Assembly (NCBI GenBank): GCA_031266655.1
Contig: JAISAP010000046.1
Span: 1-50,068, forward strand
Direction of reading: 5' to 3'
Origin: Holosporales bacterium
GTDB taxonomy: Bacteria; Pseudomonadota; Alphaproteobacteria; UBA3830; JAIRMZ01
Length of the DNA stretch: 50,068 bases
Position numbers and translations under genes: made by a program. Shown piece by piece: positions 1 through 35,088 of this stretch (positions within the stretch are counted from its first letter, which is position 1; every line of letters begins with the position of its first letter). The notes beneath the pieces are model-generated. The model had not been told where the DNA came from and did no database searches. It saw only the letters and a list, made by a program, of their open reading frames with translations.

Positions 1-682
1 GAGAAAGACAACCTGCAAAAACTTTAATGCCCGTTACTTGAAGTTTGGACCCGGGTTCAAAAGTCACAAAGTTCAGAGCTTGACACTTACTAAACGCGCA
101 GCGCCAAATGGACTCAACGCTCTTGGGAATCCAAATAGCTTGTAAGGCACACCCCTCAAAAGCTCTTGGCCCGATACACGAAAGCTGCGATCCCTTTTCG
201 AAAAACACAGATTTCAAGCAGTGGCATTCACTGAACGCGCCTTCTTTAATTTTCTCAATGCTGCGGGGAAGACGAATGCATGCTAAAAGAGAGCATGCAA
301 AAGCATCTTCCTCGATTTTCTTAAGCTCCGAACCCGCTTCAAAAGCTATCCAAGTCAAATGTGCACACCACTTGAATGTCTCTCGTCCAATCTGCTCGAT
401 ACCCCTAGAAACACAAACCTTCTGCAGCCTCTCCTCACGGATGTGGTCGTAGGCGCGTACCCATGCTACGACATATACTCTGCGACCCTCTTTTGAGACC
501 CTCGATCTTGGAAAGCATTCCCGTAACGTTGTATTCACGTGACAATGTGCGGTATTTCCCCCAAAGAGTTGATAGACATATCCATCGAGGGAGAGAGAGT
601 TCCACGGATTCAGCATTGGTACGGCACTATTCGCCACACTTAAAACAAGCCCTACCGCCGCTACACAACGAAAGGCAGTCAT
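1..682 (-). CDS. BspA-type leucine-rich-repeat protein, secreted (3' end runs off window; absent from ORF track)
   Basis: Manual minus-strand translation from ATG 682-680 gives MTAFRCVAAVGLVLSVANSAVPMLNPW..., then LRR units ...IGRETFKWCAHLTWIAFEAGSELKKIEEDAFACSLLACIRLPRSIEKIKEGAFSECHCLKSVFFEKGSQLSCIGPRAFEGCALQAIWIPKSVESIWRCAFSKCQALNFVTFEPGSKLQ... The frame stays open to base 1. GGAGGGG lies 7 nt upstream of ATG 682. Alternative in-frame ATGs at 715 and 775. Confidence 0.75.
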   Translation of the reverse strand, partial: MTAFRCVAAVGLVLSVANSAVPMLNPWNSLSLDGYVYQLFGGNTAHCHVNTTLRECFPRSRVSKEGRRVYVVAWVRAYDHIREERLQKVCVSRGIEQIGRETFKWCAHLTWIAFEAGSELKKIEEDAFACSLLACIRLPRSIEKIKEGAFSECHCLKSVFFEKGSQLSCIGPRAFEGCALQAIWIPKSVESIWRCAFSKCQALNFVTFEPGSKLQVTGIKVFAGCLS

Positions 683-778
683 CTCGACCCCTCCATGGTC
701 CCACGCAGACTCCATCCGGTGTCTCGGTACTCCTATCGAGGGCCGTTGGGCAATATTCGAGGATACCTTGCCCATGTT

Positions 779-2905
779 CTACGCTTGCGTTTCTCCCATG
801 CGCTGCCAGTCCTCTTCCGATAAGATAGGAATCCCGAGACGTTCTGCCTGGACACGCTTACTGCCGGGGCTTTTGCCAACCACCAAGTAGCTCGTGGAAC
901 GCGTCACTTCGCTTCCCACACGCGCTCCTAAACGCTCCGCCTGCGTCTTGGCCTCAGCACGACTCATCTGCGTCAATGTCCCAGTAAAAACGATAATCTT
1001 TCCAGACAACGGCGTCCTTTTCTCTTGGAGGGGAGGTTTCCAAGAGGTCACCTGGAGGAGCCCGGCTCCCGCTTCCTCCCCCACTCCCGCAAGTTGATCC
1101 AGAAGGGCAATATTCTCGGGACAGGAGAGGAAGGCGCAGAGACCTGTAACGGTTTTCAGACCCATTCCAGAAAGCGCGGTGAGGTCTTCCTGGAGAGCGA
1201 GGAGATCCCGGCTGGCTGCCCGAAAGGCCGCGTAGGTTCCGTAATGTTCTGCGAGCAAGCGCGCGGTAGTCTCTCCCACTCCTTCGATCCCTAGAGCAAA
1301 TAAAAATCGCTCAAACGGCACGTTTCTGCGGGCTTCGATGCTGGAGAACAGCGCTGGCACGGAGGCTTTTCCCCATCCTTCGCAGTACACCAGGGGATCC
1401 TGTGCATCCCGGAGTTTGAGGGTGAAAAGGTCGACAGGAGAGGTCACACGTCCCGTCGTGATCAAGGAATGAAGCGACCGACGCCCGAGTCCCTCAATGT
1501 CGAGCGCCTTTTTAGAGACAAAGTGCACCAAGCGCTCCAACCTCTGGGCAGGACAGGAAAGCCCGGAGGGACAGCGTCGAAGGCTTTCTCCTTCGAGTCG
1601 GACACTCTGTGCGCCGCAGCTAGGGCAGTGCAAAGGGAAGACGTACGGCACATGGTCAGGGGCCTTCATGGCTACCTCGACGACTTGCGGAATGACGTCT
1701 CCTGCGCGTTGCAGCACGACGGTATCTCCTATGCCCAGATCCTTCCGGGCGATCTCATCTTCGTTGTACAGGGAGGCGCGCGTCACGGTCGCTCCGTCCA
1801 GGGCAGCCGGTTCGAGAATGGCGACCGGCGTTAGAACCCCTGTGCGCCCCACCTGAATGCGGATGTCCTGGAGGCGGGTCGTCACGCGCGTAGCAGGAAA
1901 CTTGTAGGCAAGAGCATAGCGAGGAGCGCGGGAGGAGGTCCCAAGACGCTCCTGCCAATCAAAACGATTGACCTTCAGCACAATGCCATCCATCGCATAG
2001 GCCAAGGAAGCGCGCTGCGCAAAGACCGTTTGGTAGAAATCGGAGATCTCTTGCAAAGAGGAGCAAAGAGCGATGGGTCTTGCGACCAGAAACCCCCAGG
2101 ATCGAAGCTGGTCCAGTAAAGACCATTGGGTCGGAAGAGAGGGCAAGGTGTGAGATAAGGCGTAGGCAAAAAACTGCAGCGAGCGCTCTGCTGTGACGGC
2201 AGGGTCTAGTTGGCGCAGGGAGCCCGCCGCCGCGTTGCGCGCATTCGCAAAGGGAAGCTCTTCGTCCTGCACGCGCTGCGCATTCAGCGCCTCAAAGGCC
2301 TGTTTGGGCATGAAAATCTCCCCGCGCACCTCAAGCATGTCCCACACTTCAAGGCCAGGGACCTTCCTGGGAATCGTCGGAATCGTCAAAGCATTGCGTG
2401 TGATGTCCTCCCCCAGGGCCCCATTGCCTCGGGTGGCGGCGCTCACCAGGGTTCCCTTCTCGTAGCGCAAGGAGACCGATAGCCCGTCGATTTTTGGCTC
2501 TACGGAGAACTCCAACGCAAAAGCATCGGTGGTCGGCGTCAGAAACCTGTGTAAACGCTCGAGAAAGACCAGGATGTCGTCCTCGGAGAACGCGTTATCG
2601 AGCGAGAGCAGGGGAGAAAGATGGATAATCTTTCGAAAAGACTCTTCAGGATCGGCGCCAACGGTTGCAGTCACGCTCTCGTGTCGTTGCAAGCTCGGGA
2701 ACTGCTCTTCTAGCGCTAGCAGACGTTGGTATAGCTGGTCGTACGCCTCGTCGCTGACCTCAGGCGCATCCTCTTGGTAGTACTTTTGGGAGAGATGCCG
2801 CAGACGTTCGGATAACTTCTGGTGTTCCTCCTGGAGCTCGACGGACGGCTCTTCCTCCTCAAAGAGCGGGAGGATGGCGGAGGCGCCCTCTTTTCTGCCT
2901 TTCAT
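779..2905 (-). CDS. ligA: NAD-dependent DNA ligase LigA
   Basis: 708-aa ORF. Adenylation motif EPKIDGLS, Zn finger CPSCG...CPSGLSCPAQ, C-terminal BRCT-like GKIIVFTGTL. The ATG directly abuts the recN stop. Confidence 0.97.
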   Translation of the reverse strand: MKGRKEGASAILPLFEEEEPSVELQEEHQKLSERLRHLSQKYYQEDAPEVSDEAYDQLYQRLLALEEQFPSLQRHESVTATVGADPEESFRKIIHLSPLLSLDNAFSEDDILVFLERLHRFLTPTTDAFALEFSVEPKIDGLSVSLRYEKGTLVSAATRGNGALGEDITRNALTIPTIPRKVPGLEVWDMLEVRGEIFMPKQAFEALNAQRVQDEELPFANARNAAAGSLRQLDPAVTAERSLQFFAYALSHTLPSLPTQWSLLDQLRSWGFLVARPIALCSSLQEISDFYQTVFAQRASLAYAMDGIVLKVNRFDWQERLGTSSRAPRYALAYKFPATRVTTRLQDIRIQVGRTGVLTPVAILEPAALDGATVTRASLYNEDEIARKDLGIGDTVVLQRAGDVIPQVVEVAMKAPDHVPYVFPLHCPSCGAQSVRLEGESLRRCPSGLSCPAQRLERLVHFVSKKALDIEGLGRRSLHSLITTGRVTSPVDLFTLKLRDAQDPLVYCEGWGKASVPALFSSIEARRNVPFERFLFALGIEGVGETTARLLAEHYGTYAAFRAASRDLLALQEDLTALSGMGLKTVTGLCAFLSCPENIALLDQLAGVGEEAGAGLLQVTSWKPPLQEKRTPLSGKIIVFTGTLTQMSRAEAKTQAERLGARVGSEVTRSTSYLVVGKSPGSKRVQAERLGIPILSEEDWQRMGETQA

Positions 2906-4540
2906 CTATCCTTTCTCCACCAGGGTTCTTGCCACTTGCCGCGCGGCCTCCGTGATTTTCTCAGCAGAGAGCATCTGCGCCAGGGTCTCGATCTTTTTGT
3001 CCGAATTGAGCTGCTCAATCAAGGTGCGGGTTTCTTGCCCACGCGTCTCCTTGCGCACACCGATGTGGTGATGCGCCACCGCCGCCACTTGGTGGGAATG
3101 CGTGACGGTTAAGACTTGCAGATGCTTCTCCGCCAAAGAGCGCAGTTTGGATCCAATAGAGGAGGCCACCGCTCCACTCGTTCCTGTATCGATTTCATCA
3201 AAGATCAGGGTTGTAATATCGAGGGATCGCGCGAGGGCGGTGTATAGCGCGAGGGAGAAGCGTGCCAGCTCTCCTCCGGATCCTCCTCGTTCCAAAGGTC
3301 GCAAGGCACCTTGCGGGTTTGTTCTCACCAAGAACGTGATAGCGTCTTGCCCCTTTGGTCCCGGAGTTTCGCAGGGAGCAATCTCAACCCGGAATTCCGC
3401 TCCGATAAACCGCAAATCCTGCAGATGCCCGTTGACCTCGGAAGTAAGAAATCCTGCCGCTTGACGGCGTCGAACGGAGGCCTTTCCCGCAGCCGCCTCA
3501 TAAGCGGCATGCTCTCTCGAACACTGCTCTTCCAACGCCGTCGTAGAAATGGGAGCTAGGTGTTCCGCACGCGCTTTGAGCTCTGCCCACAAATCTCCCA
3601 GCATCTCGGGTACAGTGTTTTGCTGACGCGCGAAGTCGCGGAGGGTAAACAGGCGCTCCTCAATGGCCTCCGGCGATTGCTCCGCCGAAGACAAGGCCTG
3701 TGCGCGCGCCTCCAAGGGCCCCAGGATGGCTTCAACCGAGGTCCAGGCCTGTTCTAGCAAGGGCAGAAGATCGGAAAAGGAGTGCATCTCCTCTCTCATC
3801 AGGATTTTTTGCACTTGTCGAAAAGTGGCCCCTGTCTGCTCTCCTAACAGGGAACGCAGCTGCTCCAGCGCTTCCTGTGTAGCGCGTTGGTGTTTGAGAG
3901 AAGACTTTGCCTGCAGAAGACGACTTTCTTCCCCCTCTTCCGGATGAATGCGCTCAAAATCCGATAAAACGCGCGCTAGAAGGGTTCTTTCTTCTTCTTG
4001 TTGGACGGCCTTCTCCTCCAGTTTCGACAGTTGGCGTTGTGTTTCTTTCCACTGAGAGAACAACCGCGCCATTTCTGCAGCATCGATGCCTGCAAACCGA
4101 TCTAGAAGAACCTCATGGTCTGCTGCCTCCCAGAGTTGACTGAATTGGCCATGAAACTCGAGTAGGAAAGGCGCTAGCTTTCGGAGGAATCCCTGACTGA
4201 TGACCCGGTCGTTCAGGAAAGCACGCGATTTTCCTTCTCGTGTGAGCGTACGGCGGAAGAGAAGCTCTGTGTCGCCAATGCCCGCTTGCTCGATCCAGGA
4301 AGCGATGGGAGCGGATCGCTCTCCTCCAGGAGAGGAAAACTCAAGGGTCACCGAGGCTTCTTCAGCAAAGGGGCCGACGGGAGGATCCTCCAGCTTACCC
4401 CCTAAGGCAAACGCAATGGCGGAAAGGAGAAGGGACTTGCCCGATCCCGTCTCTCCCGTGACAACGGTAAATCCTGAGGAAAACGAGAGATCCGCGCGCT
4501 CTATCAAGACGAAATTCCGAATACTGAGCTGCAGCAGCAT
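2906..4540 (-). CDS. recN: DNA repair protein RecN
   Basis: 544-aa ORF. Walker A GETGSGKSLLL, coiled-coil middle, signature GGSGGELARFSLAL, Walker B LIFDEIDTG. Confidence 0.96.
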   Translation of the reverse strand: MLLQLSIRNFVLIERADLSFSSGFTVVTGETGSGKSLLLSAIAFALGGKLEDPPVGPFAEEASVTLEFSSPGGERSAPIASWIEQAGIGDTELLFRRTLTREGKSRAFLNDRVISQGFLRKLAPFLLEFHGQFSQLWEAADHEVLLDRFAGIDAAEMARLFSQWKETQRQLSKLEEKAVQQEEERTLLARVLSDFERIHPEEGEESRLLQAKSSLKHQRATQEALEQLRSLLGEQTGATFRQVQKILMREEMHSFSDLLPLLEQAWTSVEAILGPLEARAQALSSAEQSPEAIEERLFTLRDFARQQNTVPEMLGDLWAELKARAEHLAPISTTALEEQCSREHAAYEAAAGKASVRRRQAAGFLTSEVNGHLQDLRFIGAEFRVEIAPCETPGPKGQDAITFLVRTNPQGALRPLERGGSGGELARFSLALYTALARSLDITTLIFDEIDTGTSGAVASSIGSKLRSLAEKHLQVLTVTHSHQVAAVAHHHIGVRKETRGQETRTLIEQLNSDKKIETLAQMLSAEKITEAARQVARTLVEKG

Positions 4541-4706
4541 GGGTAAAAACCCCTCTTGGAATGATTCCTCTGCGCCCCCTTTGCCCCTGGGGACACCCTA
4601 TCTTTAATGGACTCTGCGCTTGCACGCCAGTCTCTCGCAGTGGGATGCTCTTGCTAAAGGGCTCCCTTCCGTATATCAAGCGGGTAGTCAATACGGAGCG
4701 CAGGCA

Positions 4707-6020
4707 ATGACGAAACAAAAGATTTTGGGTGCGATTGCTGCGTTTGTTGTGGGAGCGCTAGGGGCACTTTCCGAGACGAAGGCGATGCCTCCGTTCTGGG
4801 AGATATCCCCTGATGGGTTTGGCTTTTGCAAGAGGGTGGAAGCTCATGGGGGAATGCTTGTAGAGGCTCCGACCACTCTTAGCCGTGGAGAGAGAGTGGA
4901 TGGCCCTACCTTTGGTCCTCCATTACGGCGCTTCCACGTTCCTGCACAAGTGGGGATCATGGCTGGAAGATGTTTTGCAGGCTGCGGGCTTCTTTCTTAC
5001 GTTGCCTTCGGGGCCAATTCTCAGCTCACAGAGATAGGAGAGTACGCTTTTGAGAACTGCTCCAGCCTGCAATCTATCCGTATCCCGGCGGGCGTAGTAG
5101 TGATTGGAGCGCAATGTTTCGTGGCCTGTAGGGCCCTTGTCCACATTCACTTTGAACCTGGTTCTCAGCTCACGGAGATAGGAGCAAATGCTTTTAACCA
5201 CTGCTCTAGTCTGTTCTCCATTTGTATCCCTGCAGGTGTACGGACGCTAAAAGTTCAGTGTTTCTGCATGTGCCGTGCCTTAGCCCATGTTTCCTTTGAG
5301 AGGAATTCTCAACTCGAGGAGGTGCGAGCTGGGGCGTTTGCCTGCACAGGTCCGATCTGCGTTCGTTTGCCACATAGAGTAACCTTTGGACCGTATCCAT
5401 TTAGGGGCTGGGGCTCCGGACTTGTGGGCTCTTCCCCCAAAGTGTTCTTTGGGGATAAGAAAGCGGGCGATTGTGATGGTATTCGTGGAGGCACTGATCT
5501 AGGAATTGCTACAATCCCTAAGGACTGTGAAACGCTCCCACCTTACTGCTTTCAAGACTGCCATTTTCTTACCTTTGTCAACTTTGAAAGGGAGTCTTGC
5601 CTCACGGTGATAGGACAAAGCGCCTTTCAGCGCTGCATATTCTTGCACTCCATCTGTATCCCAGCGAGCGTACAGAAGGTGGAGGAGCGTTGTTTCTCAC
5701 TGTGCAACGGTCTCTTTTCCGTCTCCTTTGAGCTGGGTTCTCAGCTCCGAATCATTGGGTCCCGCGCTTTTTCGGGGTGCAACAGATTGCAGTCCATTTG
5801 TATCCCTAAGGGCGTTGAAGAACTGAGAGGGGAATGTTTCGCGGGGTGTATCAATCTCTTGTCCGTTTCCTTCGAACAGGGTTCTCGGCTGCGGTGCATT
5901 CTACCAGGAACTTTTGCCGAGTGCTCTCAGGCACTACGGGTCATCCTGTCTCCGGGTGGGAAGACCCTCTGTTCCTGGCAGCTTGAGCAAGGTTGGGGTA
6001 AGCCGTCTAATCCAAGCTAG
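4707..6020 (+). CDS. BspA-type LRR protein, secreted (paralogue 2)
   Basis: ORF 4620..6020. Start re-set to ATG 4707 (MTKQKILGAIAAFVVGALGALSETKA|M) by alignment with paralogues. Repeated units of the form IPAGV..IG..CF..C..L..V.FE.GSQL.EIG..AF..CSSL. C-terminus QLEQGWGKPSNPS. Confidence 0.85.
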   Translation: MTKQKILGAIAAFVVGALGALSETKAMPPFWEISPDGFGFCKRVEAHGGMLVEAPTTLSRGERVDGPTFGPPLRRFHVPAQVGIMAGRCFAGCGLLSYVAFGANSQLTEIGEYAFENCSSLQSIRIPAGVVVIGAQCFVACRALVHIHFEPGSQLTEIGANAFNHCSSLFSICIPAGVRTLKVQCFCMCRALAHVSFERNSQLEEVRAGAFACTGPICVRLPHRVTFGPYPFRGWGSGLVGSSPKVFFGDKKAGDCDGIRGGTDLGIATIPKDCETLPPYCFQDCHFLTFVNFERESCLTVIGQSAFQRCIFLHSICIPASVQKVEERCFSLCNGLFSVSFELGSQLRIIGSRAFSGCNRLQSICIPKGVEELRGECFAGCINLLSVSFEQGSRLRCILPGTFAECSQALRVILSPGGKTLCSWQLEQGWGKPSNPS

Positions 6021-6022
6021 CG

Positions 6023-6036
6023 CCCCCCCCCCCCCC
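6023..6036. repeat. poly(C)14 homopolymer tract
   Basis: 14 consecutive C, 2 nt after the stop at 6020 and about 90 nt upstream of the next paralogue's -35 box. Confidence 0.9.
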
Positions 6037-6125
6037 TGCTCAATTGAAGGGGCGCATCCCTTTGACGATAGGTGTTCTGCTCAGGAAGACCCACCTCCTC
6101 TTCTCGGCGTTTTTACTTTACTACA

Positions 6126-6154
6126 TTGGTTATTTTGAAAATCTGTTCTACGCG
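6126..6154 (+). promoter_or_regulatory. putative promoter of the 6186 paralogue (TTGGTT-17 nt-TACGCG)
   Basis: Positional homologue of the TTGACT-17-TACnnn cassette. The -35 lies exactly 60 nt before the ATG, with AAGGA 9 nt before the ATG. Confidence 0.4.
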
Positions 6155-6185
6155 CTATACGTAAACAGTAATAAGGATAACAAGA

Positions 6186-7353
6186 ATGGGAAAACAAAAG
6201 ATTTTGGGTGCGATTGCTGCGTTTGTTGTGGGAGCGCTAGGGGCACTTTCCGAGACGAAGGCGATGGAGCCGTGGCCGTTACAAGAGCTCGTTGATGGGC
6301 GTCTTTTCTTCAGGGGAGTCATTGCTTGTGGTGGGCGGTGTGTATTCATGGAACAAGATAATGTCACTTCTCGGATGGCAGGAGGAAGAGTTCTGTCATC
6401 CATCTATGATAGTCTTCATTTGCATCGAGTTTGTATTCCCAATGGCATGAAGGGGCTTGTCAGGGGCCATTTTTATGGTTGCCGTCCTCTTTCCTCTATC
6501 ACCTTTGAAAGGGGTTCCCTCCTAACGACGATAGCAAAAGGCGCTTTTGAGGGCTGCCCCAGCCTGCAATCTGTTTGTATTCCTGCAAGCGTGTTGGCGC
6601 TGGAGAATTGCTGCTTCAGAGCGTGCCGTTCTCTAGCTTCCGTTACCTTCGAAAGCGGTTCTAAGCTTAAGAAGATAGGAGGGTGCGTTTTTGAGAACTG
6701 CTCCAGCCTGCGATTCATTTGCATTCCCGCTGGTGTGGGGACGCTGGGGGATCACTGCTTTGACCTATGCTGTTTCCTAGTCGTCGTTACCTTTGAGGAG
6801 AATTCTCAACTCGAGAAGGTGCAACCCGAGGCGTTTGCCTACACAGAGTCGATCTGTGTTTATTTTCCTCGTAGAGTAACCTTGGTGCTGTGTCCATTTA
6901 AGTGCTCTTTCCCCGAGGTGTTCTTTGGGAACAAGAGAGCGGATGATTGTGATGGTATTCGTGGAGGCACTAATCTACGAATTGCTACAATCTCTGAGGA
7001 CTGTGAAATGCTCCCGCCTTTCTGCTTTGCAGGCTGCCATTCTCTTGTCTCCGTTAACTTTGAGCCCGTTTCGCGCCTCCGAATCATTGGGCCTAACGCT
7101 TTTACGGAGTGCGTTCGTTTGCGATCCATCATTATCCCCGAGAGCGTGCAAACGGTGGGGAAGAGTTGTCTTTCCGGAGCGCTGTGTTCTTCCCCTCGTT
7201 TCCTTTGAAGAGGGTTCTCAGCTCCGATGCATTCCACCAGAAACTTTTGTCGGGTGCTCTCAGAAACTACAGGTCATCCCACCTCTAGGAGGAAGAAGTC
7301 TCTCCCTTCGGCAGCTTGAGCAAGGTTGGGGTAAGCCGTCTAATCCAAGCTAG
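6186..7353 (+). pseudogene. BspA-type LRR protein, frameshifted (paralogue 3)
   Basis: ORF 6186..7208 ends ...VGKSCLSGALCSSPRFL*. The +1 frame (tail of ORF 6925..7353) continues CVLPLVSFEEGSQLRCIPPETFVGCSQKLQV...QLEQGWGKPSNPS, colinear with the C-terminus of the 4707 gene. The shift lies near 7170-7180. Confidence 0.75.
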
Positions 7354-7367
7354 ACGTTTAAGCTCTT

Positions 7368-7376
7368 CCCCCCCCC
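7368..7376. repeat. poly(C)9 homopolymer tract
   Basis: 9 consecutive C, 14 nt after the stop at 7353 and about 50 nt upstream of the next -35 box. Same relative position as the C14 tract. Confidence 0.9.
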
Positions 7377-7425
7377 TAATTTAGAAGACATCGCGCTCTC
7401 CTCCCCGACATTTTACTTTACCCTA

Positions 7426-7454
7426 TTGACTATTTTGAAAGCCTGCCCTACACA
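7426..7454 (+). promoter_or_regulatory. putative promoter (TTGACT-17 nt-TACACA)
   Basis: Conserved cassette. The -35 lies exactly 60 nt before ATG 7486. Confidence 0.45.
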
Positions 7455-7485
7455 CTGCATATGGACAATAATGAGGATAACAAGA

Positions 7486-9549
7486 ATGAAAGCACAGAAG
7501 ATTTTGGGTGCGATTATCACACTTGCTTGGGGAGTACTGGCTGTACTGCCTGAGATGGAGGCGATGGAACCACGTTCAAGCGAAACGATGCAGTGGCCGC
7601 AGGAAGAACCCTTTGGTGGGTGTCTTTTCCCCAGGGGGGTCATTGCTTGTGGGGGGCGGTGTATACCCAGAGAGCAGGGGAATATTCCCATTCAGGCAGC
7701 ACCGCGGGTAACCATAACTCTGACATCCGCGTATTATGCACCTAATGTGCGACGTGTCTGTGTTCCCGCAGGTATGAAGGTGCTTACCGAAGAGTGTTGC
7801 TCAGACTACCGTTCTCTCGTTTTCGTTGCCTTTGAATGGGGGGCTAGGCTTGAGAGGATAGAAGGGTACGCTTTTGCGCGCTGTCCCAGTTTGCAATCCA
7901 TCTGTATCCCAGAGAGCGTAGAGGTCCTTGGTAAGCAATGTTTCTCCGATTGTTCGTCTCTTTCCTTTGCCACCTCTGAGAGGGATTCTTGTCTCATGGT
8001 GATAGGAGAGAACGCTTTTGAGAACTGCCGCAACCTGCAATTTATTTACATTCCTGCGTACACAGAGGCCCTTGGGGAAAAATGTTTCTCCGCTTGCGCG
8101 TCTCTTTTCTGGGCTGCCTTTGAGGATGACTCTCAACTTGCAAGTATTGGGGAAGAGGCTTTCTTTGGCTCTGCCTTACGATCCATTGCTCTTCCCGCGA
8201 GCGTAGAGAGGGTTGGGGTGAAGTGTTTTTCGAATTGCACATCTCTTTTCTCTGTCACCTGCGAAGATGGCTCTTGCCTGACGGCGATAGAAGAAAGTGC
8301 TTTTGAGAACTGCTCCAATCTGAAGCCTGTCACTCTTCCTGCGAGCGTAGAGAGAATCGGGAAAAGATGCTTCTTTGGTTGCCGACAGCTTACCCGTGTT
8401 ACCCTTGGAGACGGCTCTCGCCTCAAGAGCATTGGGGAAGAAGCTTTCTTTGATGCTGGTTTGACGTGTTTTAGCGATATTCCCGTGAGCGTGGAGGAAA
8501 TTGGGGCGAGGTGTTTTGCTAGATGCCCTCTTTCTTCCATTGCCTTTCGGCCCCATTCTCGGATCACAAGCCTAGAAAATCACGTTTTATGGGGCACTCA
8601 CTTGCAATCCATTTGTATTCCAGCAAGCGTGGTAACATTGGGCTCTTCGTGTTTTTTCTGCTGTGCGTCTCTTGCCTGCATTACTTTTGAACCTGGCTCT
8701 CATCTCATGAAAGTAGGCCAGAGTGCTTTCATGGGTACCGACGTGCGATCTCTTCGCATTCCCGCGAGTGTACAGACATTAGAGGACTTCTGTTTTGATA
8801 GCTGCAAATCTCTTTCCGTGGTCACCTTTGAGGCCGACTCTCTCCTTCAAGCGATACCGAAATTCTGCTTCCAACGTTCCTGTATGCAGAGCATGATCAT
8901 TCCCGCAAGCGTGGAGCGGTTTGAGCTGATGTGTTTCCACCTCTGTCAATCCCTTTCCTCAGTTACCTTTGAAGGGGGTTCTCGACTCGTGAAGATAGGG
9001 GAAGAAGTTTTCAAAAATGCCAGCATACCAACCCTTACCATTCCTGCGAGCGTGGAGCGGCTCGGAAGCGCTTGTTTTGAAGGTTGCCAATCCCTTTTCT
9101 CTGTTACCTTCGAAAACGGATCTCAACTCGAGAGCATTGTAGGTAGGGTTTTCTTCGGTTCTGGTATACGGAGCATTCTCGTGCCTGCGAGTGTAAAGTG
9201 GGTTGGGGAATCTTGCTTCGAAGGTTGCCAATCCCTTGATTCAGTCACCTTTGAGAATGGGATACAACTCAAGAGCCTTGGGAAAAGGGCCTTCTTTGAT
9301 TCTAGCATACCGACCTTTACCGTTCCTGCGAGTGTAGAGTGGATCGGGGTAGAATGCTTTTCTGGGTGCCGACGTCTTTCTTCGGTTGTCATTGAGGCTC
9401 ATTCTCAACTCCAAACAATCGAAACAGGAGCCTTCTCTGAGTGTCTTTCGATACAGAAGATTGTTCTCCCGAATGGGGAGGAATGCTCCGTTTCGCAGCT
9501 TGAGCAAGGTTGGGGTAGCTGCCTATCCGAGCTGGACGTTGAGTTTTAG
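7486..9549 (+). CDS. BspA-type LRR protein, secreted (paralogue 4, about 687 aa)
   Basis: ORF 7426..9549. Start re-set to ATG 7486 (MKAQKILGAIITLAWGVLAVLPEMEA|M). About 25 consecutive LRR units (IPASVE.(I/L)G..CF..C.SL.SVTFE.GS.L..I...AF). C-terminus VSQLEQGWGS... Confidence 0.88.
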   Translation: MKAQKILGAIITLAWGVLAVLPEMEAMEPRSSETMQWPQEEPFGGCLFPRGVIACGGRCIPREQGNIPIQAAPRVTITLTSAYYAPNVRRVCVPAGMKVLTEECCSDYRSLVFVAFEWGARLERIEGYAFARCPSLQSICIPESVEVLGKQCFSDCSSLSFATSERDSCLMVIGENAFENCRNLQFIYIPAYTEALGEKCFSACASLFWAAFEDDSQLASIGEEAFFGSALRSIALPASVERVGVKCFSNCTSLFSVTCEDGSCLTAIEESAFENCSNLKPVTLPASVERIGKRCFFGCRQLTRVTLGDGSRLKSIGEEAFFDAGLTCFSDIPVSVEEIGARCFARCPLSSIAFRPHSRITSLENHVLWGTHLQSICIPASVVTLGSSCFFCCASLACITFEPGSHLMKVGQSAFMGTDVRSLRIPASVQTLEDFCFDSCKSLSVVTFEADSLLQAIPKFCFQRSCMQSMIIPASVERFELMCFHLCQSLSSVTFEGGSRLVKIGEEVFKNASIPTLTIPASVERLGSACFEGCQSLFSVTFENGSQLESIVGRVFFGSGIRSILVPASVKWVGESCFEGCQSLDSVTFENGIQLKSLGKRAFFDSSIPTFTVPASVEWIGVECFSGCRRLSSVVIEAHSQLQTIETGAFSECLSIQKIVLPNGEECSVSQLEQGWGSCLSELDVEF

Positions 9550-9588
9550 AACAGCCCTCTCTCTTTCTGGCGTTTCTATTGCACCATG

Positions 9589-9617
9589 TTGACTATTCTG
9601 GGCACCTATTCTACGGA
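9589..9617 (+). promoter_or_regulatory. putative promoter (TTGACT-17 nt-TACGGA)
   Basis: Conserved cassette, 61 nt before ATG 9650. Confidence 0.45.
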
Positions 9618-9649
9618 TCATCCGTAAATAGTAACAGGGATGGCCGACG

Positions 9650-18407: not shown

Positions 18408-20573
18408 ATGGAAAAAAGGAGGATTTTAAGCGCAATTTCTCTGCTGGTTTGGGGCATACTCACTACACCCTTCCAGGCTGAGGCAGTACAGCAAGACTCG
18501 AGGGAGTTCTTAGGTGCATCCGATATCCATTTCAGAGGAGTGATCGTTCGTGATGGAAACCCTCAAACGCTTTTGGAACTGAGAGCCAGTTCTGGCGCAC
18601 AGACGACGGAGGAGACGGACTCTTCCGCGCATCCTCGCCTTGTCGTTCCCGCAAGTGTGGAGGCGATCAGGGAAAGGTATTTCGCAGGATACCCATCCCT
18701 CTTCTATATTGCCTTCGAGGCCGGTTCTCACCTCGAGTGTGTAGAGGCAAGAGCGTTCTCAGCTTCTAAAGTGCGATCTCTTGCTCTTCCCAGGGGTGTG
18801 CCCGTGCTGAGCGCAGAATGCTTTCGAAACTGTAGATCCCTTGTCTCTGTTACCTTCGAGAAGGGTTCTCATCTCAGAGCAATGGAAGAGGATGTTTTCT
18901 ATCGTTCCACCCTACGGTCCCTTGTTATTCCTGCAAGCGTGGAGGCGCTTGGCGCTTGGTGTTGCGCGGACTGCCCGCTCACTCTTGTCGTTTTTGACCC
19001 TCATTCTCGACTAGAAAGCATAGGATCGAGAGCGTTCGCCGGGTCTAGCGTACAATCTCTCATGATCCCCGCGAGCGTGACGGTCGTTGAGGCGGAGTGT
19101 TTTGCAGACTGCCCATTGCTGACCTCCTGCGCCTTTGAGGAAGGTTCTCGACTCAGTACCTTCGGGGAGGAAGCGTTGGCCAACACAGCCCTAGAGTGCG
19201 TTGATTTCCCAGAGGGAGTAGAGTTTAGCGTTTGTATATTGAGTGGTTCTAGCGTTAGGGCAATAGACGTTGGGGGTGCACCAGTAAGCTTTTTCTGCGG
19301 TCTCTATGCGGGTACTTACATCCTACAAGAGCTCATGGTTCCTCGAACCATCGAAGGGCTTATAGATTCCTGTTTTGAGCGGTGCAGTACTCTACACTCC
19401 GTTACCTTTGAAGCTGGCTCCCAACTCCAGGGGATTGGAAAGAAGGCTTTCGCTTATTCTATCTTGCGATCTCTCGTCCTTCCCGCACCTGTGAAGGTGT
19501 TGGGAGAAGCGTGCTTCTCAAACTGTCGATGCCTTACCTCCGTTCTCTTTGAAATTGGCTCTTCGCTAGCATCTGTTGGAGACAGAGTGTTTGCCTGGAC
19601 CAGTTTAGAGAACATCTATCTCCCAGAAGGAGTAAATTATGGAATTCGTATATTCAGTAGTTCTAGCATTAGGGAAATATACGTTGGGGGTGTACCAGCA
19701 AGTCTTTTCTGCGGTCTCCATGCAGGTACGTGCATCCCGAGAGCTGTGGAGGTCCCTCAAGACGTGACAATGCTCAAGAGCTCCTGCTTCGAGTTATGTC
19801 ACATGCTCCATACCTTAACCTTCGCAGCCAATACTCAGCTCCAGAAGATAGGAATGCACGCCTGCATGTATTCTGGCATACGATCCCTGGCTATTCCCAA
19901 GAGTGTGATAGCGCTTGACACTAGGTGTTTTGCGAGTTGTCAACGCCTTCTCTGCGTCACCTTCGAAGCCCACTCTCAACTCCAAAAAATTGGGGAGGGG
20001 GCGTTTGCTGGTTCCGCCCTACGATCCATTGTTATCCCTGCAAGTGTTGGGATGCTCGACAAATATTGTTTCGGAGATTGTGGATCGTTGATGCGCGTTA
20101 CCTTTGCAGCCCACTCTCGGCTTCAAGAAATTGGGGAGGGGGCGTTTGCTGGCTCCGCCCTACGATCCATTGTTATCCCCGCAGGTGTAGGGATGCTCGG
20201 CAAACAGTGTTTCGGAGATTGTGGATCGTTGATGCGCGTCACCTTCGAAGCCCACTCTCGGCTTCAAGAAATTGGAGAGGGTGTGTTTGCTGGCTCCGGC
20301 ATACAATCCCTTGTCGTTCCTGCAGGTGTAGAGATGCTCGGCAAACAGTGTTTCGGAGATTGCGGATCGTTGATGCGCGTTACCTTCGAAGCCCACTCTC
20401 GGCTTCAAGAAATTGGGGAGGGGGCGTTTGCTGGTTCCGCCCTACGATCCATTGTTATCCCTGCAAGCGTAGAGATAGTGAGGGAACGGTGTTTTGTACG
20501 GTGCCGGTTCCTCGGTCCTATCACCCTTGAGAAAGGTTCTCGCCTTCGAAGAGCGAGAGGCCCGTGTCTCTAG
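18408..20573 (+). CDS. BspA-type LRR protein, secreted (paralogue 9, about 721 aa)
   Basis: ORF 18363..20573. Start re-set to ATG 18408 (MEKRRILSAISLLVWGILTTPFQAEA|V). LRR units throughout. Contains the 4 x 141-bp tandem block. Confidence 0.86.
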   Translation: MEKRRILSAISLLVWGILTTPFQAEAVQQDSREFLGASDIHFRGVIVRDGNPQTLLELRASSGAQTTEETDSSAHPRLVVPASVEAIRERYFAGYPSLFYIAFEAGSHLECVEARAFSASKVRSLALPRGVPVLSAECFRNCRSLVSVTFEKGSHLRAMEEDVFYRSTLRSLVIPASVEALGAWCCADCPLTLVVFDPHSRLESIGSRAFAGSSVQSLMIPASVTVVEAECFADCPLLTSCAFEEGSRLSTFGEEALANTALECVDFPEGVEFSVCILSGSSVRAIDVGGAPVSFFCGLYAGTYILQELMVPRTIEGLIDSCFERCSTLHSVTFEAGSQLQGIGKKAFAYSILRSLVLPAPVKVLGEACFSNCRCLTSVLFEIGSSLASVGDRVFAWTSLENIYLPEGVNYGIRIFSSSSIREIYVGGVPASLFCGLHAGTCIPRAVEVPQDVTMLKSSCFELCHMLHTLTFAANTQLQKIGMHACMYSGIRSLAIPKSVIALDTRCFASCQRLLCVTFEAHSQLQKIGEGAFAGSALRSIVIPASVGMLDKYCFGDCGSLMRVTFAAHSRLQEIGEGAFAGSALRSIVIPAGVGMLGKQCFGDCGSLMRVTFEAHSRLQEIGEGVFAGSGIQSLVVPAGVEMLGKQCFGDCGSLMRVTFEAHSRLQEIGEGAFAGSALRSIVIPASVEIVRERCFVRCRFLGPITLEKGSRLRRARGPCL
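19926..20489 (+). repeat. 4 x 141-bp in-frame tandem repeat (two LRR units per copy)
   Basis: TGTTTCGGAGATTGTGGATCG recurs at 20067, 20208 and 20349 (period 141). Encoded units are CFGDCGSLMRVTFEAHSRLQEIGEGAFAGSALRSIVIPAGVGMLGKQ, nearly identical between copies. The first copy (19926) is more diverged. Confidence 0.9.
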
Positions 20574-20672
20574 ACCCTCCAATGCAGGCTATTTCCTTAG
20601 GGAGGAGCGGCCCTACTGCGCAGCCTCAGGAGGGATGAACGCTCTCTCTTTACTTACTGCTGGATGCGCGTA

Positions 20673-20701
20673 TTGACTATACCAAAAATCTATTTTACAC
20701 T
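20673..20701 (+). promoter_or_regulatory. putative promoter (TTGACT-17 nt-TACACT)
   Basis: Conserved cassette, 57 nt before ATG 20730. Confidence 0.45.
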
Positions 20702-20729
20702 ACATGCACAGTTGACGGAGTCACGAACC

Positions 20730-21944
20730 ATGAAAAAACAAAAAATTTTAAGCGCAGTTTCTGCACTTGCTCTGGGAATGTTGAGCATCTTTTCCGAAAC
20801 CAATGCGATGTCTTCGAACGAGGGGCGGTTTGAAGAAGAGGAGGAAGCTCTTATAGGATCGCCCTGGTTTCTGGAATTACCCGTTAATGGGTTTCTCGCT
20901 CTCAGGTCGGCAACCGCTCATGCAGGGGTGTTTGAGCCGTCTCCGACCATCGTGGATAGAGCCTTTGTTTTATATCTGCAAGGGACAGACGTTGAGCTGC
21001 GGAGCTTCGTTATTCCCGCACACGTGGAGACTCTTGAGCAAAGATGCTTCTGGAATTACCAGCACCGGTCTCCTTTCTTCGTTGCCTTCGCAGCTAATCC
21101 ACAACTCAAGAGCATGGGGGAGGGAGTTTTTGCTGAATCTGGTTTGTTCCATATCACCATTCCGGCAGGCATAGGGGAGGTTAGCGCAGCGTGTTTTGTT
21201 GATTGCCCCTTGAGTTCCATTACCTTTGCGGCCGGTTCTCGAATCACGAGAATAAACCCAGATGCTTTTGAGGGTTCCAACTTGCAATTCTTTTTTGTTG
21301 TTTCAAGTGTGGAAGAGATCGGTGTACAGAGTTTCTACAGCTGCCAATCTCTTCGATGTGTTATGTTCGGAGAGGGGTGTCAACTTCAAGTGATACACGA
21401 GAGGACCTTTAGTTACTGCTCTGCCTTGCAATCCATCACTATTCCCGCGAGTGTGCAGGAGCTTAGAGAAAAATGTTTTGAAACTTGCTCGTCTCTTGGC
21501 TCTGTACTCTTCGAGAGTGGCTCTCAGCTTTCTGCGATTGGAAGGAAAGCCTTTAATCACTCTGCCGTGCAAGCCATCGTTATTCCCGCGAGTGTGGAGA
21601 TACTGGGAGATGGGTGTTTTGCCAATTGCAGCCATCTTTCCTCTGTTACCTTTGAGGACGGTTCTCAACTTGTGAAGGTAGGAGCAAAAGCTTTCTGTCG
21701 CTCTGCCTTGCAAGGCTTCACTGTCCCTGCAAGCGTAACGATACTGGGTGAAAGGTGTTTTGCTGATTGTACGGACCTTTCTCGGGTTATCTTTGCACAA
21801 AAGTTTCGACCCCAAGAGATTGGGAAGGATACGGTTGCTGGAAGTCCTCAGGTGCGGCTCATCGTCAAAACAGGAGCCAGCACAGGAAGGAACTGGCCCG
21901 TCGACAAGTTCAATCAAGGCCTGCGTCGCGCTCCCTCCTCTTAG
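20730..21944 (+). CDS. BspA-type LRR protein, secreted (paralogue 10)
   Basis: ORF 20664..21944. Start re-set to ATG 20730 (MKKQKILSAVSALALGMLSIFSETNA|M). LRR units IPASV.(I/E)L...CF..C..L.SV.FE.GSQL. Confidence 0.86.
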   Translation: MKKQKILSAVSALALGMLSIFSETNAMSSNEGRFEEEEEALIGSPWFLELPVNGFLALRSATAHAGVFEPSPTIVDRAFVLYLQGTDVELRSFVIPAHVETLEQRCFWNYQHRSPFFVAFAANPQLKSMGEGVFAESGLFHITIPAGIGEVSAACFVDCPLSSITFAAGSRITRINPDAFEGSNLQFFFVVSSVEEIGVQSFYSCQSLRCVMFGEGCQLQVIHERTFSYCSALQSITIPASVQELREKCFETCSSLGSVLFESGSQLSAIGRKAFNHSAVQAIVIPASVEILGDGCFANCSHLSSVTFEDGSQLVKVGAKAFCRSALQGFTVPASVTILGERCFADCTDLSRVIFAQKFRPQEIGKDTVAGSPQVRLIVKTGASTGRNWPVDKFNQGLRRAPSS

Positions 21945-22661: not shown

Positions 22662-23367
22662 GGCTCCGGACTAGCATCTTTTTCGTCACTTGACCAGATT
22701 AGTTAGCAAACTGAGGAGATTCTCACCCCTGTTGCTGTACCGGAACTCACACTCCTTCAAGTGCAAAAGGAAGACATCGCCTCTTAAGCCGTTGAACTTA
22801 GCACAACGCCTCTCCGTGCAGCTCCAAAAGGCCTCAACAACGTAGCTCTTGCCTCTAGCAAACTCATTCTTACCCTGAAAGGCTCGGTAAGGATCCACCC
22901 CATTCACAACAAGCCCTTCATAGGTTCCCCAGCCATCTGTGTGAACCGTAGATCCCTCTAGAATCTTCCCTTGGGTAATAGGCATTAACTCTTCTCTTGA
23001 GCAATTCGGAACCATGCCAACAAACAACTTGCCCCTCTCTCTTTAACAAGCCAAAGACCAGAGTCTTTCCTGCTGCTCCACGACCTCTCTTGCCCCGACC
23101 TCTCTTCGCTCCAAAAGACCTCTCATCCAGCTCAAAGACACCAAAATCCCGAGAATCCTCCGCAAAACTCTGCTGCACGATCAGCTCTCGAAAGTACTTG
23201 TAATGCGAGTTAATCGTGTTTCGATTTATTTCTAACAACTTGCTCGCAGAACTTGCCGACATGTCCTCACAGAAACATGCAAGAATTCCATGTTTCTTGT
23301 AAGCTCCTAACCGACTGAACTTCAACATGTCTTACCCTACCTAACATCATTTTGCTAGGAGAGAGCC
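22662..23367 (-). mobile_element. IS1595-family (ISXO2-like) insertion sequence, 706 bp, decayed
   Basis: Imperfect terminal inverted repeats GGCTCCGGACTAGCA (22662-22676) and GGCTCTCTCCTAGCA (reverse complement of 23353-23367), 11/15 matches. Encloses the transposase reading frames. No target-site duplication seen. Confidence 0.7.
22686..23328 (-). pseudogene. IS1595-family DDE transposase, frameshifted
   Basis: N-terminal part 23328..22918 (...ELDERSFGAKRGRGKRGRGAAGKTLVFGLLKREGQVV). C-terminal part 23027..22686 (VPNCSREELMPITQGKILEGSTVHTDGWGTYEGL...GKNEFARGKSYVVEAFWSCTERRCAKFNGLRGDVFLLHLKECEFRYSNR). These are typical ISXO2-like motifs. The frames switch at GTTGTTTGTTGG, about 23020-23035. 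Confidence 0.8.
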
Positions 23368-28230: not shown

Positions 28231-29460
28231 CTATTTATGGGGCTTCTGGTGATGGGAAGCTGCGGCAGCGGGATGAGGGTGGGGAGCCCCGGCAGCGGGA
28301 CGGAACCTGCCATGAAAGGGGTGCTCTTGGTGAATCTGTTGGGCTTTGCCCATATGCTCCATCGCTGTTTTACGGTGTTCTGCCACATTTTCTGGGTGCA
28401 TCCTATGCTGTTCTACAGCTTGACGATATCCTTCAAGTGCTGCGTGTTTGTTCTTTAAATTTTCTGCCCAGGGGTGCTTTGCTCCCTGAAGTTGACCGGT
28501 CTCTTTAGCATGAAAACTCTGCCCTGCCTTCCACTCAGACTCATCCCACGGATGGCGCGGTCCTGGATGTTTACCGCCTCCTCCAGGAGGACCGCCTGGT
28601 GGTCCGCCACGGCCTTTACCTCCTCTAGGACCCCCATGAGGCCCCCAGAGCGGCACAACCGGTTTGTCCGGAATCCTTGCCGCCGCTGCTCTTACCTCGC
28701 TGTGAAGCGTCCTCGCTTGATCCTCACATCTCTTCGCTGCATCCAGGTGGTGGAAAGATTCGTCATGTTTGCCCTGCTCATAAGCGATCGTGTGTTTTCG
28801 CATCTCTTCCTGGTATTCCCTTATTGCCCGGTAGTACTCAGATGTTTTGGTGCAGAGATCTTTTTTGGCGGGATCGCTCTCCTTCGCGGCAGCCTCCGCG
28901 TACGTTTGGGCGCGGTGTGTGTAGAAAGGCGCGTCCCATACAGCCCCCGGAGGGAGCTCAAGGTGTGTCGTGTGAGGCAACGGCTTTTTGCATTGGTGGG
29001 GACAACCTTTTCCTTTGGGAAGCGCGCCTCCGGGTGGCGGCGAAGGAGAAAGAGAACGTCGTCCCTTGCGCAGGTCAGGCCCTCCCGATACCGGAGAGGG
29101 AGAAGGAGAGCGCCGTTCCCTGTGCACGTTGGGGTTCCCCCGCGGATCTGTGGCATCCCTTCTGAACCGCCACAGATGGTGGGAAGAAGGAGCAGGACTA
29201 GCAGCGGGATTGTGTGGAGTGGGGACTGGGGACGGGACGTAAGGAGCTCTTGCTGCAGGAGAAGGAGCGCTTGCTACAGGAGGAAGAGGAGTGCTCGCAG
29301 CGGGAGAAGGAGTGCCAGAGGGGTTGCCTGCTGGAGCTGTCTGATCTAAGTTGCCGTCTTCGTAAAGAGACGTGCTGTCCGTTTGGGGAGCAGCTTGCGT
29401 TGGGCCTAAGCAAAAAGCCACACAACAGATCACAGTCCATTTTCTCCGCAGGTCCCTCAT
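28231..29460 (-). CDS. secreted Pro-rich / His-rich low-complexity protein
   Basis: 409 aa. Signal peptide MRDLRRKWTVICCVAFCLGPTQA|A. Pro/Ser-rich N-half, Gly/Pro block PPGGPPGGGGKHPGP, and a C-terminal helical His-rich part with HPENVAE/HRKTAME/HMGKAQQ heptads. Confidence 0.7.
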   Translation of the reverse strand: MRDLRRKWTVICCVAFCLGPTQAAPQTDSTSLYEDGNLDQTAPAGNPSGTPSPAASTPLPPVASAPSPAARAPYVPSPVPTPHNPAASPAPSSHHLWRFRRDATDPRGNPNVHRERRSPSPSPVSGGPDLRKGRRSLSPSPPPGGALPKGKGCPHQCKKPLPHTTHLELPPGAVWDAPFYTHRAQTYAEAAAKESDPAKKDLCTKTSEYYRAIREYQEEMRKHTIAYEQGKHDESFHHLDAAKRCEDQARTLHSEVRAAAARIPDKPVVPLWGPHGGPRGGKGRGGPPGGPPGGGGKHPGPRHPWDESEWKAGQSFHAKETGQLQGAKHPWAENLKNKHAALEGYRQAVEQHRMHPENVAEHRKTAMEHMGKAQQIHQEHPFHGRFRPAAGAPHPHPAAAASHHQKPHK

Positions 29461-29507
29461 ATCTCCCTCCTTCTCAAAGTAACCCTTCTTTCAGATATCC
29501 ACGCCCA

Positions 29508-30416: not shown

Positions 30417-30441
30417 TGTTAGCTCCTTTCAGGACTCCTCT

Positions 30442-31233: not shown

Positions 31234-31348
31234 TTGCTCCCTTCAGAAAACTTCTACAAGTCCATTCAAACCAAACTTTATTAAGAAGTAGGAAAAAAGT
31301 ACTAGCGGAGTGATGAGGAGAACCTCGGCATGGTGTTGGTGCACAAGA

Positions 31349-31984: not shown

Positions 31985-32073
31985 ACTTTGCTCCCTTCAG
32001 AAAACTTCTATAAGTCCATTCAAACCAAACTTTATTAAGAAGTAGGCAAAAAGTACTAGCGGAGTGATGAAAG

Positions 32074-32103
32074 GAAGGGGAAAGATTTTTCCCCTTCTTT
32101 TTT
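32074..32103. terminator. intrinsic-terminator-like hairpin between His-heptad genes
   Basis: GAAGGGGAAA (32074-83), loop GATT, TTTCCCCTTC (32088-97), then T6 (32098-32103) on the + strand. A short A tract precedes it, so it could act bidirectionally. It lies about 100 nt downstream of the stop of the 32200 gene (minus strand). Confidence 0.5.
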
Positions 32104-32199
32104 GTGGGAGCGGCCTAGTTTTGAGCGCCCTCTTCTTGGATACTCCCTCGGTAGGCCCTAGTGCCCCGCCTTGAAAACTCGGCGTGGGAATGGTGACCG

Positions 32200-34171: not shown

Positions 34172-34175
34172 GACG

Positions 34176-35087: not shown

Positions 35088-35088
35088 G

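Follow-up and report, generated by a model that had tools for sequence, protein, structure and literature searches.

A tandem array of TpLRR/BspA-like leucine-rich repeat genes with predicted export signals in an uncultured alphaproteobacterium

The contig JAISAP010000046.1, from a bacterium deposited as Holosporales (NCBI GenBank assembly GCA_031266655.1), carries a dense series of related genes for leucine-rich repeat (LRR) proteins among ordinary bacterial core genes. This raises the question of what these proteins are, how the series arose and with what its products might interact. The window analysed is the entire 50,068-nt contig, and the array lies within its positions 1-21944. A preliminary description, made from the sequence alone, presented the array as a ten-member family of secreted BspA-type LRR proteins, suggestive of a host-interaction or surface-variation repertoire. 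The reading that we prefer, with a probability of roughly 0.6, is that it codes for TpLRR/BspA-like binding proteins that are exported by Sec, contain LRRs as their only domain and form a lineage-specific family in an uncultured alphaproteobacterium, and that these proteins are probably directed at a host or partner.

Composition of the array and architecture of its products

Ten LRR loci are present, with starts at 682 (minus strand), 4707, 6186, 7486, 9650, 10543, 11781, 13321, 18408 and 20730; they are numbered g0 to g9 in the following. The translated open reading frames (ORFs), nine on the plus strand and one partial on the minus strand, are rich in Cys-containing repeats of about 23 amino acids (aa). 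All ten starts had been given correctly, and each gene opens with a conserved leader. The share of LRR coding sequence had been put too high: it sums to 13,469 nt, which is 26.9% of the window and not about 40%, and corresponds to 61% of positions 1-21944. All of it is confined to this part, and a tblastn search of the window with the family found none further along. As to the number of members, ten holds for the loci, while three of the copies (g2, g4 and g6) are degraded, one (g0) is cut by the contig end and about six are intact. Since g0 is cut, the array may extend further.

All ten products match the Pfam family PF13306, LRR_5 ("BspA type leucine rich repeat region"), with 65.7-360 bits (E 5e-18 to 4e-109), far above the gathering cut-off of 27.7 bits that applies to the whole-protein hidden Markov model (HMM) score. 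An HMM built from the LRR family itself finds 69 double units of 46-48 aa each, with the consensus LrSicIPASVexLgxxCFsxCxsLxSVTFExGSrLxxIGexAFagC, in which the halves 'IPASV..LG..CF..C' and 'SVTFE.GS.L..IG..AF..C' alternate. The consensus agrees with the Cys-containing unit of about 23 aa that had been described for the array. The TpLRR/BspA-like subtype has a repeat of about 23 aa that follows L..I.IP..V..IG..AF..C.., and the units of the array agree with it.

The genes share one order of parts, consisting of a leader of about 26 residues, an N-region of about 45 residues, three to 12 double LRR units and, in some copies, a tail. The leader found at the gene starts has the form 'M(K/G)KQKILGAI...A-x-A'. 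In all ten copies it has a net charge of +1 to +3 and a best hydrophobic 12-mer with a mean Kyte-Doolittle value of 2.0-2.8, and in g1-g9 '(T/V/A/M)xA' stands before Met or Val near residue 26, a similar arrangement being seen in g0. The earlier assignment of a Sec-type signal peptide to each product is in this way supported for ten of ten N-termini, by a heuristic that combines charge, Kyte-Doolittle hydropathy and an A-x-A-like site. It was also considered whether g4 and g5 encode lipoproteins, as they display 'I(I/T)AC' at residues 9-12, but this would leave the leader too short, and the hydrophobic core comes after the Cys.

The N-region is specific to the family and contains 'F.RGV.A..G'. 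In some copies the LRR units are interrupted by a degenerate-LRR linker, 'FFG.K.A....G..GGT.L...TIP', and a conserved tail, 'V.LP(D/N)G......QL.QGW', is found in g1, g2, g3, g6 and g7. Pfam searches with every copy gave only LRR_5 and a sub-threshold LRR_8; neither Big_2 nor a Por_Secre_tail or other C-terminal domain of the type IX secretion system (T9SS) was found. In BspA the LRR region is followed by Ig-like domains of the bacterial Big_2 type and by a C-terminal sorting domain for the T9SS, and since these extra domains are absent the array genes are not orthologues of BspA. The label BspA-type is thus correct for the LRR subtype, which is borne out by Pfam, the sequence matches in the PDB and the fold prediction, but it does not extend to orthology with BspA or LrrA, as only LRR_5 is found in Pfam.

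An AlphaFold2 model of g1, based on the family alignment, has a mean predicted local distance difference test score of 78 and forms a continuous solenoid over residues 72-430. Regular strands occur every 22-25 residues from residue 75 to 413, with lower confidence through the linker. Residues 3-21 are modelled as a lone helix, residues 22-71 have low confidence, and the tail is modelled as a terminal hairpin and a short helix, where it looks more like a cap than a sorting signal. When the model was compared with known structures using Foldseek, 4gt6, PcpA (4cp6), 4fs7 and 4h09 ranked first, then 4fd0 and 4fdw, which are two Bacteroides LRR proteins, and then TpLRR (6mlx). The Foldseek probability is 1.00 for 4gt6, 4cp6, 4fs7, 4h09 and 6mlx. 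The same PDB entries, including TpLRR 6mlx and PcpA 4cp6, match g3 by sequence. The predicted structure is a curved β-solenoid like those of the solved LRR_5 proteins.

Divergence, exchange and decay of the copies

The paralogues display 35-61% amino-acid identity (median 43%), and in most comparisons the number of synonymous substitutions per site (dS) exceeds 1, which marks the copies as old and distinct. Their identity is not evenly distributed. Between g1 and g2 it is 95% in the signal peptide, about 40% in the N-region and 85-93% in the linker, while the promoter of g2 is 93% identical to that of g6 and its N-region resembles that of g3. A stretch of about 150-200 nt is 90-97% identical between g4 and g5. 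Such mosaic identity along pairs points to exchange between copies. Young internal repeats of 141 nt, 84-88% identical, are found in g8 and g6, which indicates that the repeat number is still changing. Judged from these comparisons, the family is one of birth-and-death type in which copies recombine and some decay.

The intact copies are all on the plus strand. The first of them, g1 (4707..6020, 437 aa, Pfam E 1e-58), is composed of a signal peptide, the N-region with low model confidence, three double units, the degenerate-LRR linker, three further double units and the cap 'LSPGG...QLEQGWG'. The protein encoded by g3 (7486..9549) has 687 aa, 12 double LRR units and the C-terminal cap 'LPNG...QLEQGWG' (Pfam E 4e-109), while g5 (10543..11538) is shorter, with 331 aa and four double units. 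Further along are g7 (13321..15129), with 602 aa and 11 double units (Pfam E 9e-108), and g8 (18408..20573), with 721 aa and 12 double units. The latter contains a young internal tandem repeat at 19954-20476, in which 141 nt are repeated 3.7 times with 88% identity. The last gene, g9 (20730..21944), encodes 404 aa, and its protein was recovered identically in an independent Logan assembly of run SRR14710922.

The remaining copies are incomplete or damaged. At the contig end, g0 (1..682, minus strand) is the 5' part of an LRR_5 paralogue that aligns to the family and has a signal-peptide-like N-terminus and three double LRR units. In g2 (6186..7353, plus strand) a deletion of 143 nt relative to g1, corresponding to one double unit minus one base, causes a frame shift and thus a premature end of the ORF (6186-7208), after which the C-terminus of the family continues in another frame to 7353. 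The short copy g4 (9650..10331, plus strand) is of the g5 type and has near its 5' end a 55-nt deletion and a compensating 1-nt insertion. Its ORF ends at 10291; the ancestral frame is lost at the 3' end, and the homology to g5 runs on out of frame beyond the stop. The g1-type copy g6 (11781..13193, plus strand) is split into ORFs at 11781-12596 and 12723-13193 by two in-frame stops and 1- and 2-nt indels in the linker. The second of these ORFs is the detached C-terminal part of g6 and is without a signal peptide.

A conserved block of about 100 nt is found by alignment upstream of g2-g7 and g9. Within it, TTGACT or TTGGTT is separated from TACnnn by a spacer of 17 nt, and an AAGGA ribosome-binding site precedes the ATG by about 8 nt. 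The example at 6080..6185 (plus strand), with promoter-like element and ribosome-binding site, was also found as a repeat family, and a promoter scan identified TTGACT-17-TACACT in the block of g9. In the same alignment the block is not clearly shared by the upstream regions of g1 and g8. As it is common to seven genes, whole expression cassettes must have been duplicated, and each gene therefore probably has its own promoter. Since nearly every copy has its own promoter-like block and ribosome-binding site, there are no silent cassettes and no single expression site.

For the surface variation proposed in the preliminary description no mechanism was seen. In addition to the lack of silent cassettes, there are no inverted repeats flanking the promoters that would be suitable for an invertible promoter or a shufflon, no recombinase or invertase gene among the genes of the window, and no simple-sequence repeat in any promoter spacer or ORF of the array. 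Two poly-C tracts are present, C14 at 6023-6036, 3 nt past the stop of g1, and C9 at 7368-7376, past the frameshifted end of g2. They are two of the three homopolymers of at least 8 nt in the window, and they might be hypermutable or prone to sequencing errors. Both are intergenic, and at least about 85 nt separate them from the promoter-like -35 element further downstream. The array does not have the properties of a phase-variable contingency locus.

Genomic setting and relatives

As had been noted, the array flanks recN and ligA and is divided by a second group of core genes. ORF and tRNA annotation places ligA (779-2905) and recN (2906-4540), both on the minus strand, between g0 and g1. The block that splits the array between g7 and g8 (15252..18255, mixed strands) has a GC content at third codon positions (GC3) of 0.60-0.65. 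It contains a gene for a ChpT-like phosphotransferase (15252-15857, plus strand), which matches the NCBIfam ChpT models below their cut-offs, tRNA-Arg(CCT) (15874-15950, plus), rsmB (15916-17229, minus), tRNA-Val(TAC) (17237-17311, minus) and a gene for a short histidine kinase of 301 aa with no obvious sensor domain (17350-18255, plus). The 3' end of the rsmB ORF overlaps the tRNA-Arg(CCT) gene on the opposite strand by about 35 nt. A tRNA-linked genomic island was considered and rejected, as each of the two tRNA genes within the array has its 3' end directed into rsmB rather than towards LRR genes.

A frameshifted remnant of an IS1595/ISXO2-family transposase gene (22686..23328, minus strand, two overlapping ORFs) follows about 740 nt beyond the last LRR gene and represents a decayed mobile element near the boundary of the array. 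The other core genes of the window include nusG, genes for a tryptophan-type ABC transporter and for three family-25 glycosyltransferases, murA, ymdB, lon, clpX and tsaD. The glycosyltransferase genes (33245-36003, plus strand) are tandem paralogues of the type involved in lipopolysaccharide or lipooligosaccharide biosynthesis and lie directly upstream of murA. They form a second small tandem family and may affect the surface structure. Four consecutive ORFs of 263-409 aa at 28231-33123 (minus strand) have no match in Pfam or NCBIfam. Their base composition is unusual, with GC1 > GC2 > GC3 (GC1 0.67-0.73, GC3 about 0.5), long ORFs overlap them on the opposite strand, and the coding strand is ambiguous. 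The last of the four contains a G9 run at 32295-32303. No PADLOC model for anti-phage defence was matched.

That the backbone is alphaproteobacterial, as first suggested, is supported by the ChpT-like gene, ChpT being a hallmark of the Alphaproteobacteria, and by the best matches of LigA and Lon. For LigA these were, among GTDB species representatives, about 50% identical and mostly from alphaproteobacterial metagenome-assembled genomes (MAGs), with a few discordant labels. The closest Lon sequences (77-81% identity) are from three MAGs labelled 'Holosporales bacterium', and the next ones (about 67%) are from Rhodospirillales-like taxa. Related MAGs with 77-81% Lon identity (JGI 3300042596 and 3300042618) keep the order clpX-lon-ymdB. 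One of the two has genes E and F of a type II secretion system (T2SS) beside clpX; the other has genes for a 2-oxoacid:ferredoxin oxidoreductase, and these hint at an anaerobic lifestyle of the clade. In 80 ligA loci from other genomes, mostly of Alphaproteobacteria, not one LRR_5 gene was found within 10 kb of ligA.

Three of the best outside matches to g3, the records MDR1267660, MDR1267661 and MDR1267122, all labelled 'Holosporales bacterium', are proteins with the same leader, linker and tail, 'LP(D/N)G...QL.QGW'. MDR1267661 and MDR1267122 are encoded on contigs from run SRR14710922, as are the LigA of the window and g9. Directly upstream of MDR1267661 there is another LRR paralogue, which has 42% identity with g8 and is apparently MDR1267660, both records belonging to one 19,564-nt NCBI contig. 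This second tandem pair, on a contig other than that of the array, shows that the family occupies several loci. The family has at least 13 members, very probably in one genome. On the Logan contig from the same run, the pair with MDR1267661 adjoins a pyridine-nucleotide-disulfide oxidoreductase gene.

The best outside matches to g3, these three records included, are 24-37% identical, and they mix bacterial architectures with apparently eukaryotic ones, in which LRR_5 is fused to kinase or RING domains. With a best outside identity of only 30-37%, which does not exceed that of the most distant paralogues, no donor can be named. A scan of metagenome contigs with RecN found no syntenic array in relatives, and a scan with the family alignment found only generic LRR_5 genes, 25-33% identical at most loci, in gut and other metagenomes. 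A profile of signal peptide and N-region gave no match at E <= 1e-3 among 5.8 billion proteins, and did not return the known members either. An exhaustive search with g1 gave 289,335 clusters (at 50% identity) with E <= 1e-3, mostly giant multi-repeat proteins, so the domain family as such is ordinary.

Interpretation and comparison with known systems

In the preferred reading, whole cassettes consisting of promoter-like block, ribosome-binding site, signal peptide and LRR body were duplicated in tandem. The copies later diverged by point mutation, by gain and loss of double repeats of 141/144 nt and by exchange of modules, and some of them are decaying, giving birth-and-death evolution. Each intact gene is most likely transcribed separately, and for its product export by Sec and cleavage behind the A-x-A site are expected. 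The mature protein is predicted to be a curved β-solenoid of 6 to 24 repeats, closed by the conserved C-terminal element. Binding of proteins or other ligands would take place outside the cytoplasm, be it in the periplasm or, if the protein is exported further, on the cell surface or in the medium around the cell. Through variation in repeat number and sequence the family would then offer a repertoire of binding specificities, most plausibly for cells of a eukaryotic host or partner. That the proteins interact with a host is plausible by analogy with other members of the LRR_5 family. The sequences themselves demonstrate the family, its predicted fold, the features of an export signal, the cassettes, and the divergence, mosaicism and decay of the copies, while final location, ligands and any host are inferred.

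Several observations weigh against this interpretation. Neither Pfam nor direct reading of the sequences revealed a lipobox, a C-terminal transmembrane segment, a β-barrel or a T9SS domain, and as no anchoring or outer-membrane export element was found, the products could simply stay in the periplasm. A T2SS is a possible route out of the periplasm, but the T2SS E and F genes are found only in a relative with 77% Lon identity and not in the window. The ratio of nonsynonymous to synonymous substitutions (dN/dS) is 0.2-0.7, that is, below 1. The variable positions of the repeat units are mostly in loops and on the convex side, not specifically on the β-strand (concave) face, so there is no sign of an arms race at the binding surface. 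The lesions in g2, g4 and g6 are without confirmation from a second assembly, look-ups of the exact products having given no record. The name Holosporales, and hence any intracellular lifestyle, rests on the naming by the depositors.

Some of these points would also be expected if the products reside in the periplasm or envelope and have a role that is purely bacterial, for instance in interactions within the envelope, and form no host-interaction repertoire. Such a role would fit a Sec signal as the only export element, a dN/dS below 1 and a concave face without excess variability. The TpLRR protein of Treponema, which is described as mainly periplasmic, is both a structural and a sequence relative of the array proteins and has the same LRR-only architecture. 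However, housekeeping in the envelope does not predict at least ten diverged paralogues with turnover and pseudogenes, such genes are found near ligA in none of the 80 other loci, and the LRR_5 expansions covered in the part of the literature used here are tied to host-associated organisms (PMC2843621). We consider a purely bacterial role unlikely, but deserving of some weight. A contingency system with phase or antigenic variation, switched by slippage in the poly-C tracts or by gene conversion, is an improbable explanation of the array. An exported protein present in many diverged copies is what such a system would use, modules common to different copies suggest recombination, and two of the three long homopolymers of the window fall in intergenic regions of the array. 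Nevertheless, a C tract occurs at only two of nine junctions, and both tracts lie outside spacers and ORFs and upstream of the -35 element. Nor is there a single expression site, with nearly every copy having its own promoter-like block and ribosome-binding site, and the promoters are without flanking inverted repeats and the window without a recombinase or invertase gene. Saturated dS moreover indicates that most copies are too diverged for frequent conversion.

Two further explanations concern the origin of the genes. They might stem from lateral transfer, with a protist host or gut-type bacteria as donor, followed by amplification. The GC3 of the LRR genes is 0.45-0.58, compared to 0.58-0.66 for the housekeeping genes, the IS1595 remnant lies close to where the array ends on the right, some top-scoring matches from outside look eukaryotic, and LRR_5 genes are not found near ligA in any of the 80 loci from other genomes. 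The gap in GC3, which persists in spite of the age of the paralogues, could be caused by foreign origin, but also by weak codon selection or by composition effects, and the unusual amino-acid make-up of the proteins (Cys, Ser, Phe) may affect composition. Synonymous codon choice, compared within amino acids, correlates with that of the backbone (r = 0.81). The genes also have bacterial signal peptides, ribosome-binding sites and promoter-like blocks, no tRNA-linked island boundary is visible, and the low outside identity does not allow a donor to be named. Lateral gain followed by amplification thus seems very improbable. An assembly artefact, either collapsed or expanded repeats or a chimeric MAG contig joining bacterial and eukaryotic DNA, is suggested by the source, a short-read metagenome contig, by the fact that g0 is cut at its end while independent Logan contigs break within the array, and by the unconfirmed lesions. 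Repeat collapse is nevertheless excluded, because the copies are old and distinct; a difference of 40-65% between their proteins leaves no room for confusing or collapsing them. On the single contig, LRR genes take turns with core bacterial genes, and both g9 and ligA-recN were recovered in identical form by a second assembler. This divergence and independent recovery show the array to be real, and an artefact hardly comes into consideration.

A more far-reaching version of the preferred interpretation assumes a larger repertoire of secreted LRR binders, subject to recombination, of which the array is the part that can be seen. Symbionts of a little-known and possibly anaerobic clade with the Holosporales label would rely on this repertoire for attaching to a protist host or manipulating it. 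By way of inter-domain gene transfer, the family would have a common ancestry with the BspA-like families of anaerobic protists, and poly-C tracts together with module shuffling would give variation at the population level. Taken as a whole this version is improbable. BspA-like (LRR_5) proteins are among the few repeat families that have repeatedly been tied to attachment, both in mucosal bacteria and in parasitic protists. The array marks the lineage as probably partner-associated, and it supplies candidate binding proteins.

By architecture the closest known protein is TpLRR from Treponema pallidum (6mlx), which is of the same LRR subtype, with a sequence match of E 3e-16 and, in Foldseek, 26-30% identity and a root-mean-square deviation of 2.7-2.9 Å over 147-176 residues. 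Both consist of a signal peptide followed by TpLRR-type repeats only, and the array proteins are closer to TpLRR than to BspA because they are LRR-only, without Ig-like domains and secretion tail. TpLRR is, however, a single protein (217 residues in the 6mlx chain), whereas the array has at least ten tandem paralogues, those that are intact being 331-721 aa long. Unlike TpLRR, the array proteins display a family-specific N-region, a degenerate-LRR linker and the C-terminal cap 'LP(D/N)G...QL.QGW'.

By functional precedent the closest proteins are BspA, LrrA and PcpA. Gram-positive LRR_5 proteins of the PcpA group carry choline-binding or cell-wall anchors, and no anchors of this type were seen in the array proteins using Pfam. 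PcpA from Streptococcus pneumoniae (4cp6) and the LRR_5 'cell surface proteins' of gut bacteria (4gt6, 4fs7 and 4h09) are the best structural matches, with Foldseek E 9e-13 to 2e-9. The NCBIfam model for the adhesin HupY (HupY/LrrG of Streptococcus agalactiae) gives only 26-111 bits, far below its cut-off of 1250 bits, so the similarity is limited to the domain. BspA from Tannerella forsythia and LrrA from Treponema denticola have the LRR_5 repeat type and an N-terminal export signal in common with the array, and in the part of a 2010 survey that is used here they provide a precedent for the binding of host proteins and other cells (PMC2843621).

In its evolutionary behaviour the array comes closest to the BspA-like families that have expanded in Trichomonas, in Entamoeba and in some host-associated bacteria. 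What the array shares with the expansions of the Trichomonas and Entamoeba type is many TpLRR paralogues, variable repeat number and frequent pseudogenes. Expanded families are reported for Trichomonas vaginalis, with 911 BspA-like genes of which 98 are pseudogenes, and for Entamoeba, and multi-copy sets for bacteria such as Epulopiscium (19) and 'Ca. Mycoplasma girerdii', all of them host-associated (PMC2843621; PMC4206474). Among the BspA-like proteins of T. vaginalis (TvBspA), 193 entries are described with a transmembrane domain and a cytoplasmic tail, and an inferred signal peptide is mentioned, in the part of the survey concerned, only for individual entries (PMC2843621). In contrast, the present family is bacterial, namely alphaproteobacterial, much smaller (at least 13 genes seen), arranged in tandem and equipped with a shared promoter-like block and with signal peptides throughout. 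A full-text literature search combining BspA, leucine-rich repeat and Alphaproteobacteria found no paper linking them, and the same part of the 2010 survey, which describes multi-copy BspA-like families in many host-associated bacteria, names only gamma-proteobacteria among the Proteobacteria (PMC2843621). The array reveals no new mechanism and no new protein family; the kind of system is known, while its taxonomic setting appears to be new. With its at least 13 members, which stand in tandem, recombine and in part decay, the family widens the taxonomic range of such expansions to an uncultured alphaproteobacterial lineage.

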